A stretch of DNA of 58,966 bases from Escherichia phage vB_EcoP_phi367: sequence record PV189406.1. One strand, written 5' to 3'. How positions within the stretch are numbered: the first letter of the stretch is position 1; every line of letters begins with the position of its first letter. Below, piece by piece: positions 33,001-36,000 of this stretch. Made by a program: the position numbers.

Positions 33001-36000
33001 GGAAGGCACCGGGCCTTCCAGAACGCCTGTAGAAAGCGATCTGTTTCAAATTTTTGTCTCCAGATATGAAAACCCCGACGGGATGTCGGGGATGGTAGGG
33101 GAAGTTACAGGCTTAACGAGAAGCCTTTTCGGGAATTTCGATCTGACAATCTTGAAATATCCTGTAGCGTGCGGCGCATTTCTTCCGTCAGATGCTTGAA
33201 GGCGTTAAATTCAGCGACAGCTGCGTCAACGTTATAGCCTTTGCTGTGTAGCTCGTTGAGGATGCGCATAGTTGGGCTTGGCATGTCGAAGAGCACAGAA
33301 ACGTCCAGGTTAAGAGTTTTTCGATCAACATAGCTCATCATGGAGTAGGGGTGGTGCTCTGAAAACCACGATAGAGGGTAGTTGATGTTCATTGGTGCAG
33401 GTAAAAGGCTCTGGCGAAGTTTCTTTTCGCACTCGATGAAGTATCGGCGGATCTGGCGGCCTTTTTCGTTACGCTCAACCATCGCCAGTTCTTTGGCTGT
33501 GTCGAGAGTTAGGTGGTAGTCCTTGCTACGGCGATCACCTCCTCGCCCTTTGGTTTGCCCATTTTGGCAAATCAAAATATAGTCCTGGCTTTCAACGAAT
33601 CCATATTCAGCAATGCGTTCTTTAACCCAGTGCGCGAACATTCTGCCCACACCAAGAAAAGAGTGTAGATCACGAGCGTTAACTAGAAGAATTGTTTCGT
33701 TGTCGATAGTGCCGTTGAATACGGGGATGAGTTGACTGGTCATGATGACCTCCTTTGAAGTTTTAGTTAGCAATCACCAGTTAGTGGCTGGTGATCGGGT
33801 GTCAACTAGAGCCTTCAAAGATGCTCCGGGCATATTCCCCTTGCGGGTATTGTATTACGCCTCTCCACCCGACCTTTGTACGGATGTGACTATGCCAAAT
33901 TGCAGGCATAAAAAAGCCGCAAAGCTATCGGGTGCGGATGACCGCTTTGAAGTTCTAGTGCGGTCAGTATGCGATAGCTCTGGCGGATTTGTCAAATCAT
34001 GTAGGCCTTATCTTGCTGTAAGCCGCGCCATTCGGGCTTTTCCCCAGATTTGGGGGAAACTATCTGCGAAGTATTCACCTTTGACGGCAAGTTGCAGGTT
34101 AGCCACGGTTAACCTCCTGCGGCGGTTCTGGTAGCGGCATCCAGTGTGTTACCTGCTCAACACCATTGCCCGGCTTAATCGTTGCTTCTCCTCGCCGAAA
34201 GGTGCTTCCGGTATAGCGTGCGGAGCATATTAGCGGCTCAACCAGATCACTATCGAAATTCACCGAAATAAGTACGTTCTGATTCTTTTTCGGCATTCGC
34301 TCACTACAGCTTATCCAACCATCCGGAGTTACCGAAACTGGCGACGCGGCATATAGTGGTTTAGGCGATATCTCCGCGCGTTTTGCGTATGCTTCAACTG
34401 TGTCAGGGTTAAACAGGATTATGTTTTCACCGCATTCCCACGCCACCGGCTCTGCTTCCAGCGATGCCAGCGCAATACGTGCAATTTGTCGAATCTCATC
34501 GTTAACGTTGCACATGCGCGGGTCATTGACGTACTGCTCAATGCGTTCTCTGCTAATAGTGGCCATCTCACTCTCCTTTGATGCGAATGCCAGCGACGCG
34601 TAGTGCGTGTTCTAAGTCAATCAGGCAAAGCCAACTGCCATTTTCTTTAGGTATCATGACATGCCGCTTATCAGCATTTATTGGGTGCCCATATCGAAGG
34701 TCGTAGCGAGTCGGTAATTGAACTTCCCTCGCTTCCAGTTCTGCAATGTGTTTGTTTTTAGCTTCTAGTTCATCCAGCAGCGCCAGCACAACCTGCGGTG
34801 TGACTTTCATACGAAATGCCAGCAATTTTTGTGGTGTGGCTACTATTTTTATTGCTTCTGCCGCCTCACGCAGTGCCTGATAGTTAATTTCGGTTGTCAT
34901 GCCACCACCTCTTCGAATTTCAACTCCAATTGATCACCCCAGATTTCACATGATTCGGAACACGAACCAGTATCAAACCGCCTGGCTTGCACCATCGCCT
35001 GATACAAATTACTGTAGTCACTGTCGGCATACATTCTGGCAATCCCGTCAAGCGTCAGGTGGCCACGGTACATAACGTCTTTTCCTGTTCTGCGATGACC
35101 ATCCCTGACGTGTTTGCCTGTAACCAGTTCATTAAAAAACCGCATCAGACCAGGTTCGTCTTTACATGCAAGCCCCAGCTTTTGCGTTGACTTTTTGATG
35201 CAGAAAACACAGTTCCCGAGGTGCTCTGGGATTTGCAAATCAAAAGGTTGTGCTCGCCACCACCGGATAACATCCGACTTATCAAAATGTGACAGTTCGG
35301 CAAGATACCGGACGCCCGGTTTCGGTTTCAGCCTACGGTGTTCGTCCGCACGAATACCCAGCCATGTGATGTAATTCCCTCGTCCGAAATGGTCATCGCA
35401 ATATTTCGTGAAAGGGGTGAGTTTTAGCCTGTCAGTACAGAACGCGCCGCCGATGTATGGCGTGCCGTACTTTTTAACCATATCCATAAACGGTTTAAGC
35501 ACCGGCATTCGCGTCTGAATATCCTTTGGTTCCCATTCCGTATAACTATTTGGCTGCCCAAGCTCTGGATTTATATCGACCTGCAACACGGTTAGTGGAA
35601 TATCCCAGAACTTCACGACTTCCCGAATAAATCGGTATGTCAGCGGGTGTTCACATCCCGTATCCATGAATATGTAATGAACGTTTTCACCTGCCTTTCT
35701 GCGTTGCTCCATAAGGTGAACGAGATACGCCGATGTACGACCGCCTGAAAAACTCACAACATGATGAGCGCTCATTTCTTCGTCTCTTTATGGGGGATTA
35801 AACTGGCGGTAAGCTGGAATTGCCGGATGCTCACCCGTGTCCGGCGCACGTCCTCCACCTCACCCGTGGAGAACTCCTTAACCACAACCCCTAAGGAGGG
35901 TGAAATGGATCAAAATGAAAAAATTAAAATCGCATTTCTTGCCGCTTCAAACGCCACGGCTTTATTTATTAACACTCCGCACTATCGCCAAAAATTAGAA

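Follow-up and report, generated by a model that had tools for sequence, protein, structure and literature searches.

The DNA of Escherichia phage vB_EcoP_phi367 analyzed here (sequence record PV189406.1; its full 58,966 nucleotides (nt) are referred to as the window) is that of a lambdoid phage whose backbone resembles that of Stx phages, and its leftward early operon carries a gene for a 292-amino-acid (aa) protein of the phosphoadenosine phosphosulfate (PAPS) reductase family, followed by an ead/Ea22-like gene and a DUF551 gene. Judged by its sequence, the 292-aa protein is a conserved PP-loop-class enzyme that is kin to the writers of DNA phosphorothioates and is linked to DNA methyltransferases, and it most likely serves as an early enzyme that protects phage DNA from phosphorothioate-linked restriction. 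The explanation as a whole, namely an active stand-alone PP-loop enzyme with a counter-defence role, expressed from the early leftward operon next to ead/Ea22-like and DUF551 genes that act independently of it, is given a probability of about 0.5.

All three genes lie on the minus strand, which confirms a preliminary description of three open reading frames (ORFs) at 34099–35775, one encoding a 292-aa PP-loop protein and two of them small, with one of the latter DUF551-like. The PAPS-reductase-like gene (34897–35775, ATG start, matches to PF01507 and PHROG 424) encodes a protein with the N-terminus MSAHHVVSFSGGRTSAY, and its stop codon shares an ATGA at 34897–34900, preceded by GAGGTGGTGGC, with the start codon of the ead/Ea22-like gene (110 aa, 34568–34900, ATG start, PF13935 and PHROG 250). 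The TGA of the ead gene is followed by a single nucleotide and then by the ATG of the DUF551 gene (155 aa, 34099–34566, PF04448 and PHROG 60), the start of which sits behind a strong Shine-Dalgarno sequence, with AAAGGAGAG immediately 5' of it. The block is flanked by non-coding stretches of 283 nt (35776–36058) and 325 nt (33774–34098), and a scan of 33600–36700 for promoters and terminators gave no excess over shuffled sequence. In this leftward operon, overlapping start and stop codons are the norm.

The PAPS_reduct family PF01507 matches the 292-aa protein at E 2.4e-9 (37.9 bits against a gathering cutoff of 22.5), with an alignment limited to residues 5–75 and to profile positions 2–69 of 175, and PHROG 424 matches it over residues 2–291 at E 1.8e-91. 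Its translation contains the PP-loop SFSGGRTS (residues 8–15; 35731–35754, minus strand), the signature of ATP alpha-beta pyrophosphatases, which follows a strand at residues 4–8 in the structure model, and the protein has the Rossmann-like alpha/beta core fold of the PP-loop superfamily. Residues S10, G11, G12, and S15 are invariant across 50 close relatives. In a more distant alignment of 79 sequences, which included 78 representatives at 27–52% identity, the PP-loop residues are nearly invariant (74–77 of the 79 sequences) down to 27% identity, T39 is present in 78, and K118, R142, D144, G187, N188, and K195 are each present in all 79. Five cysteines are conserved in the same alignment: Cys113 within FCTDRLK, where helix 112–130 begins (35437–35439, minus strand; 79/79), Cys189-x-x-Cys192 in the invariant motif G-N-C-x-F-C-x-K-K (35200–35211, minus strand; 79/79 each), and Cys272-x-x-x-Cys276, or CSESC, in the C-terminal tail (34948–34962, minus strand; 76/79 and 78/79, respectively). 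The AlphaFold model built from 50 homologues has a pLDDT of 87.5 and is confident except for residues 267–292, with values below 50 at residues 267–271 and 277–292, and the CSESC pair is accordingly predicted to lie on a flexible tail. Such a pattern of conservation would be expected of an active ATP pyrophosphatase with a metal, iron-sulfur (Fe-S), or persulfide centre, and the five cysteines, three invariant and two nearly so, are compatible with a [4Fe-4S] cluster.

The similarity to relatives extends over the full length of the protein and includes the clade-specific C-terminal half with its motifs FCTDR, GNCxFCxKK, and CSESC, and the protein appears to be a stand-alone PP-loop ATP pyrophosphatase of a phage-specific clade (PHROG 424/33262). 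The family is large, with 5030 matches in a database reduced at 90% identity, and among representatives at 50% identity 3026 clusters pass E ≤ 1e-3, of which 359 also pass E ≤ 1e-30. In complete genomes of E. coli, the PAPS-like gene was matched in 545 of 5426 (∼10%), including prophages with the Stx-phage backbone, and 74 of the 588 matches to the gene in these genomes are on plasmids, for example at NZ_CP015837.1:49320-50189 on a 98-kb plasmid. A subset of the clade (L074:5995-7035, L081:5968-7065, and many representatives of ∼340 aa) contains an insertion of ∼60 aa near residue 150 of the PAPS-like domain, and in the representative search the proteins of this subset matched the profile in two stretches. 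In hundreds of genomes, the protein already bears the annotation 'phosphoadenosine phosphosulfate reductase family protein'.

Among the profiles of defence-system proteins, SspD is the best match, both for the window protein (E 1.1e-15) and for its family, all 50 of 50 members of which match it with a best E of 6e-18; the BrxP profile is matched by 47 of the 50 members and the DndC profile by 19, and in all three cases the N-terminal half alone aligns. By these profiles, the clade seems to be related to the sulfur-inserting enzymes SspD, DndC, and BrxP. The kinship with DndC and BREX type 4 enzymes that had been suggested beforehand is thus borne out in the order SspD, BrxP, DndC, and does not amount to orthology with DndC by curated thresholds.

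A relative with a phenotype is found in Vibrio phages. The window protein shares 56% identity over residues 5–282 (E 4e-110) with the protein P0096, annotated as 'Dam methyltransferase with PAPS reductase domain [Vibrio phage 44E38.1]'; the latter is p0018 of Piel et al., aligned through its N-terminal PAPS domain, and it is a relative at the level of an orthologue. Phages restricted by Dnd in Vibrio crassostreae carry Dam alone, 96% identical to the Dam domain of p0018, phages that plate on that Dnd host carry the PAPS-Dam fusion p0018 together with p0019, and a sensitive phage that received p0018 and p0019 plated fully on a host that carried Dnd and had its retron deleted (bioRxiv 10.1101/2021.05.05.442762). 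The near-identical phage 41E34.2 encodes p0019, a DUF6475 protein, in its replication/nin module, with the 280-aa ORF p0020 upstream of it and with p0018 and then NinB and NinG downstream. No homologue of p0019 was found in the window or in 80 IMG/VR loci searched, and the PAPS domain is therefore likelier than p0019 to be the anti-Dnd determinant. Phage PAPS reductases have since been treated as candidate anti-defence genes with reference to Piel et al. (PMC13551039), and literature searches on the mechanism of the anti-Dnd PAPS domain led only to Piel et al. and to papers that cite it.

The genomic neighbourhood of related genes was sampled in 80 IMG/VR loci, of which 76 could be scored, and no neighbouring gene is conserved across these 76. 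The position of the gene differs as well, being in the ea region in some phages and in the nin region between O/DnaB and NinG in others; both are accessory regions in which anti-restriction and Dam genes sit, and this supports a counter-defence role. A recurrent theme is the association with DNA methyltransferases. PAPS-Dam fusions are encoded in 8 of the 76 loci and in P0122, P0129, and P0151, fusions in the reverse order (Dam-PAPS) are represented by P0121 and P0123, and in P0128 the PAPS domain is fused to a D12 class methyltransferase (PF02086). Similarly, a single 968-aa ORF in IMGVR_UViG_2850135801_000009 (L050:4576-7482) joins a C5-methyltransferase, a PAPS-like domain, and Dam, and looks like a three-module anti-restriction polyprotein, and in four further loci (L018, L023, L034, and L035) a Dam gene lies directly upstream of the PAPS gene. 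Because such fusions have arisen independently with three methyltransferase families and in both orders, they argue that the PAPS-like domain acts on DNA and belongs with anti-restriction modification functions. The window itself contains a stand-alone Dam-type N6-adenine DNA methyltransferase gene in its nin region (48527–49081, plus strand; PF05869, E 2.1e-64), the product of which is of the family that other phages fuse to the PAPS domain or encode next to it, shares 38% identity with the Dam domain of the protein from Vibrio phage 44E38.1, and is a possible partner of the PAPS-like protein in trans. The 56% identity to the PAPS domain of p0018 and the methyltransferase fusions together lend support to the earlier suggestion that the gene may modify DNA or counter host defence. 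As to its function in lambdoid phages, the literature searches yielded no experiment on the PAPS-like gene in Stx or lambdoid phages, in agreement with the earlier description.

In the proposed mechanism, the gene would belong to the early transcript of the leftward operon, along with the genes for recombination and the methyltransferase, and its product would use ATP at the PP-loop and a cysteine or Fe-S centre (C113, C189-x-x-C192, and C272-x-x-x-C276) to place a protective sulfur-type mark on the replicating phage DNA, or alternatively would speed the phosphorothioation of that DNA by the host. Phosphorothioate-linked restriction would then treat the phage as self. As another alternative, the protein may disarm in some other way the self/non-self test of Dnd, and possibly that of Ssp or BREX type 4. 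Probable co-workers would be the host IscS, and DndD/E or SspB/C where these are present, or a methyltransferase in cis or in trans; the borrowing of host factors or of a methyltransferase is proposed because no P-loop NTPase or DNA-recognition partner is encoded adjacent to the gene. The ead/Ea22-like and DUF551 genes would be accessory genes with no part in this, their only tie to the PAPS-like gene being a shared message. We infer the formation of the sulfur mark by means of ATP and cysteine-bound or Fe-S-bound sulfur, as well as the substrate, the chemistry, and the sharing of one target by the Vibrio and E. coli proteins.

Several observations weigh against this explanation. Besides the PAPS-domain protein, all characterized phosphorothioate writers depend on a P-loop NTPase and on a subunit for DNA recognition (PMC12914056, PMC12707154), and neither is encoded near the PAPS-like gene. 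The likeness to SspD or DndC is limited to the first ∼150 residues, and for the C-terminal ∼120 no relative could be detected beyond the clade itself. The evidence for an anti-Dnd effect derives from the exchange of two genes, involves a fused protein in another genus, and leaves the chemistry of the phage DNA unmeasured. In addition, C113 and C189/C192 were considered as equivalents of the CC...CxxC [4Fe-4S] ligands of APS (adenosine phosphosulfate) reductase, using reductase sequences rebuilt from PDB alignments, hhalign in global and local mode, and Smith-Waterman comparisons with shuffles; this equation gained no statistical support, the alignment being significant only over residues 7–65, with the local scores of the second half matched or exceeded by 127 of 500 shuffles for the Pseudomonas aeruginosa enzyme and by 52 of 500 for the Mycobacterium tuberculosis enzyme, so that any correspondence of these cysteines to the Fe-S ligands is one that we infer.

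An unlikely variant is that the protein is a self-sufficient DNA-modifying enzyme with undescribed chemistry, guided to its target by a methyltransferase either in cis, as in the fusions, or in trans, as with the Dam encoded at 48527–49081. Examples of such activities would be an ATP- and Fe-S-dependent thiolation of a DNA base or a backbone phosphorothioation that proceeds without DndD/E or SspB/C. If this were the case, the DNA of many Stx-phage-like lambdoid prophages of E. coli would bear an unnoticed sulfur mark.

Improbable, too, is a stoichiometric inhibitor or decoy that mimics SspD or DndC without any catalysis on phage DNA, and that would bind host DndD/E, DndFGH, or SspE or sequester the sulfur donor. 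The likeness to the host enzymes is limited to the domain that is likely to contact their partners, no NTPase or DNA-recognition partner is encoded, and binding is the mode of action of many anti-defence proteins, all of which would agree with such a role. However, the PP-loop, the catalytic-type charged residues, and the five cysteines are conserved down to 27% identity, as would be expected of an enzyme, and because of this conservation the protein is better read as an enzyme than as a decoy; the fusions to DNA methyltransferases likewise argue for action on DNA.

The chances are lower for a modifier of something other than DNA, in which the protein would thiolate or otherwise modify tRNA or a free nucleotide in the manner of TtuA, NcsA, TtcA, ThiI, or TilS, and could thereby tune translation or evade tRNA-targeting defences. 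Its recurrent fusion or adjacency to DNA methyltransferases of three families and the anti-Dnd phenotype of its Vibrio homologue speak against this, Pfam finds no RNA-binding domain (THUMP, PUA, or the TilS C-terminal domain) in it, and its best matches among hidden Markov models of defence proteins are to enzymes of DNA phosphorothioation.

That the PAPS-like, ead/Ea22-like, and DUF551 genes form one functional system is very unlikely. The two small proteins are well assigned: the 110-aa protein matches PF13935 (Ead_Ea22) at E 4e-12 (47.3 against a gathering cutoff of 27) and PHROG 250 at E 2.6e-34, and the 155-aa protein, which consists of an N-terminal module and a C-terminal DUF551 domain at residues 83–150, matches PF04448 at E 3e-22 (79.7 against a gathering cutoff of 22) and PHROG 60 at E 3.4e-46 over residues 1–154. 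No relatives of either were found in the PDB. The ATGA overlap and the 1-nt spacer do join the three genes, and the gene following PAPS is a member of the DUF551/ead cluster in 11 of 15 loci with a PAPS gene at least 90% identical to that of the window. These 15 loci are near-identical E. coli prophages, however, and among the loci below 90% identity such a neighbour occurs in only 1 of 61; in these phages, the PAPS gene has its place in the nin region, with replication genes on one side and NinG on the other, or forms a fusion with Dam. Moreover, DUF551/ead genes occur in tandem and in variable copies, and DNA resembling some part of the 2-kb block is present in 4254 of the 5426 complete E. 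coli genomes versus 545 for the PAPS gene alone. Since the DUF551/ead neighbours are confined to near-identical E. coli prophages, the coupling of the three genes is local synteny in a polycistronic early operon and not a system; of the three-gene coupled block described earlier, the overlapping and closely spaced junctions stand and the functional unit does not.

A protein cluster (P0020; 294 aa, 20 contigs) unites a PAPS domain truncated at ∼79% of its length, in frame, with DUF551 (PF01507 and PF04448), which could be taken as a point in favour of a joint function. It lacks the conserved C-terminal CSESC cysteines and is for that reason probably a deletion derivative. In the record NZ_CP076232.1, PGAP labels the sequence identical to the DUF551 protein as a partial pseudogene 'missing N-terminus', whereas the ORF in the window is intact, and its labelling as a pseudogene looks like an artefact that arose in the annotation of a protein built of modules.

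The idea of a true PAPS or APS reductase (CysH) that boosts sulfate assimilation during infection as an auxiliary metabolic gene is hardly tenable, for although PF01507 matches, PHROG 424 is filed under 'moron, auxiliary metabolic gene', the top Foldseek matches are CysH structures, and database names and virome papers count such genes as cysH, all CysH models failed by a wide margin (TIGR00434, 16.7 vs. 165.1; TIGR02057, 14.5 vs. 254.2; TIGR02055, 13.8 vs. 235.3; NF002537, 24.6 vs. 154), the TM-scores of those Foldseek matches are just 0.35–0.45, sequence resemblance to solved PAPS/APS reductases does not reach beyond the first ∼100 residues, and the catalytic motif ECGLH, which is seen in the three solved reductases aligned (ECGLH in two and ECGIH in 7rge), is not in the 292-aa protein, the C-terminus of which is GSCSESCEIWGDQLELKFEEVVA.

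The leftward operon of the window is composed of minus-strand genes in an order that begins with cI (43039–43755), Gam (40077–40373), RecT (39286–40071), and exo (38606–39289), continues with four ORFs between exo and the PAPS block, including a YfdQ-like one (36699–37520), and resumes to the left of the DUF551 gene with an antA/B-like gene (33105–33773), a 143-aa ORF, and an MT-A70-family DNA methyltransferase gene (31995–32621), the product of which is 99.5% identical to a protein so annotated in NZ_CP076232.1. Three genes (DUF551, antA/B-like, and the 143-aa ORF) thus separate the MT-A70 gene from the ead gene within one early operon. Since Gam, RecT, exo, and MT-A70 share the operon with the block, the gene map agrees with the earlier placement of the block beside recombination and methylation genes. 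Genes for DUF1382, DUF1627, and DUF4222 proteins, also on the minus strand, lie between MT-A70 and xis (30443–30742), which is followed by int (29080–30414). Rightward of cro are an O-like gene, DnaB (45491–46942), the Dam gene of the nin region, NinG, and Q (50832–51365), followed, as in Stx phages, by three tRNA genes (Met-CAT, Arg-TCG, and Arg-TCT) and, after only ∼530 nt (51807–52587 for this stretch), by a SASA esterase gene, and there are lysis genes as well. A tblastn search of the window found no match to Stx2 A or Stx2 B, and with no stx genes detectable, the phage is an stx-negative version of the Stx-phage backbone. In total, the phage carries two DNA methyltransferases (Dam and MT-A70) and the PAPS-like gene.

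The best relatives of the phage, vB_EcoP_phi296/phi315 and Stx2 II, each span 55–62% of the queried region. Over the 2-kb block, a prophage of E. coli O157:H7 strain 7.1_Anguil has exactly the sequence of the window (100% identity), and the record of this strain matches the window at ∼30750–39290 (98.2%), 50354–52095 (94.0%), and 52462–57412 (97.5%), with no BLAST match between 39290 and 50354 or to the left of 30750. The gene context was taken from the window itself because this record matches only parts of it, and the context that PGAP annotates in the record (NZ_CP076232.1; a PstI-like restriction-modification system, Stx2a, and argW with a second integrase) was dropped for the same reason. 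At its nin region, the O157:H7 7.1_Anguil record has a 323-aa ORF annotated 'primase-helicase zinc-binding'. In the window, the DUF1627 ORF (31389–31787, minus strand) contains a perfect 9-bp tandem repeat of ∼6 copies at ∼31540–31595, the unit of which reads GCTGCACTG on the plus strand and gives rise to (PVQ)n in the protein. The DUF1627 protein has 126 aa in NZ_CP076232.1 and 132 aa in the window, and because the former is 6 residues shorter, the number of repeats differs among prophages. Immediately upstream of the phage's integrase end, a single ORF of 2430 aa occupies 21250–28542 on the plus strand.

What is already known of the gene is that it belongs to an annotated family and a PHROG and that one relative has a published counter-defence phenotype. 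Virome surveys count the phage 'PAPS reductase/cysH' as the most abundant sulfur auxiliary metabolic gene, and if these counts include the clade of the window protein, part of them may be mislabelled counter-defence genes. If the protein does mark DNA with sulfur or hijack host phosphorothioation, it would be the counterpart, on the modification side, of anti-restriction methyltransferases and would help to account for which hosts medically relevant lambdoid phages can infect. The conserved PP-loop and five-cysteine constellation are direct targets for mutagenesis.

Compared with enzymes of sulfur metabolism, the 292-aa protein shows significant similarity to CysH/APS reductases (PDB 2goy, 6vpu, and 1sur) and to LarE (8cnz), NcsA (6scy), and TtuA (5mko) only over residues ∼5–100, and its C-terminal ∼120 residues match nothing solved and are unrelated to these enzymes. 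Structure comparison of the model scored 12.6 for APS reductase 2goy (23% identity), 12.6 for [4Fe-4S]-LarE, 12.5 for TilS, 12.1 for NcsA, and 11.9 for TtuA; the Foldseek matches in the PDB were weak, and those in the viral library were mostly unnamed or generically named PAPS reductases. The profile searches proposed at the outset for separating the clades were negative for CysH and for DndC and gave a full-length match for the phage clade PHROG 424, and membership of the PAPS-reductase family accordingly holds at the level of PF01507, above its threshold, and does not extend to a true PAPS reductase by the curated CysH cutoffs.

As for identity with DndC, SspD, BrxP, or IbrA, the score for DndC is below the curated threshold and the partners of the other three are lacking. 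SspD is similar in size (a profile length of 277 against 292 aa), but the match spans only positions 1–121 of the 277, and the window gene is phage-borne and part of an early operon, whereas SspD is part of a host defence island. No genes for SspB, SspC, or a cysteine desulfurase are nearby, and SspB (nickase) and SspC (ATPase) are absent from the related loci as well as from the window. DndC and BrxP share with the window protein the PP-loop core and cysteines compatible with an Fe-S centre, and both are linked to DNA modification. For the DndC equivalog TIGR03183, however, the score is 17.3 where 290.4 would be required, the PADLOC DndC profile matches the N-terminal part only (E 2e-4), and the window protein is ∼200 aa shorter; DndD (P-loop ATPase) and DndE have no gene in the window, and no recurrent DndD/E-like neighbour cluster was seen in the 76 related loci, where clusters were assigned by inspection and not by family search and consisted of replication, nin, recombination, YfdQ-like, or DUF551/ead genes. 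Similarly, the 779-position BrxP profile is matched over residues 6–58 only (E 3.7e-5), and the protein is ∼490 aa shorter than that profile, with no DUF4007 and no BrxC/Z/L context. IbrA-type prophage proteins combine PAPS_reduct with DUF3440 and are paired with the ParB-like IbrB. IbrA resembles the window protein in being a prophage-borne member of the PAPS-reductase family in E. coli, but DUF3440 (PF11922) is not found on the latter at E ≤ 0.1, PF01507 being its sole Pfam match, and the window has no ParB-like neighbour of the IbrB type.

The closest characterized relative is instead p0018, a counter-defence determinant against Dnd. Its PAPS domain and the window protein have in common the PP-loop, FCTDR, WLGIRADE, EHLGNCVFCIKK, and GSCSESCE, and both are encoded by accessory early genes in modules of a temperate type of phage with Red-like recombination genes nearby. 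They differ in that p0018 unites its PAPS domain with a Dam domain at the C-terminus of one polypeptide, whereas the window protein is stand-alone with a Dam gene 13 kb away, and in that the p0018 gene lies in the replication/nin module and the window gene in the ea region of the leftward operon.

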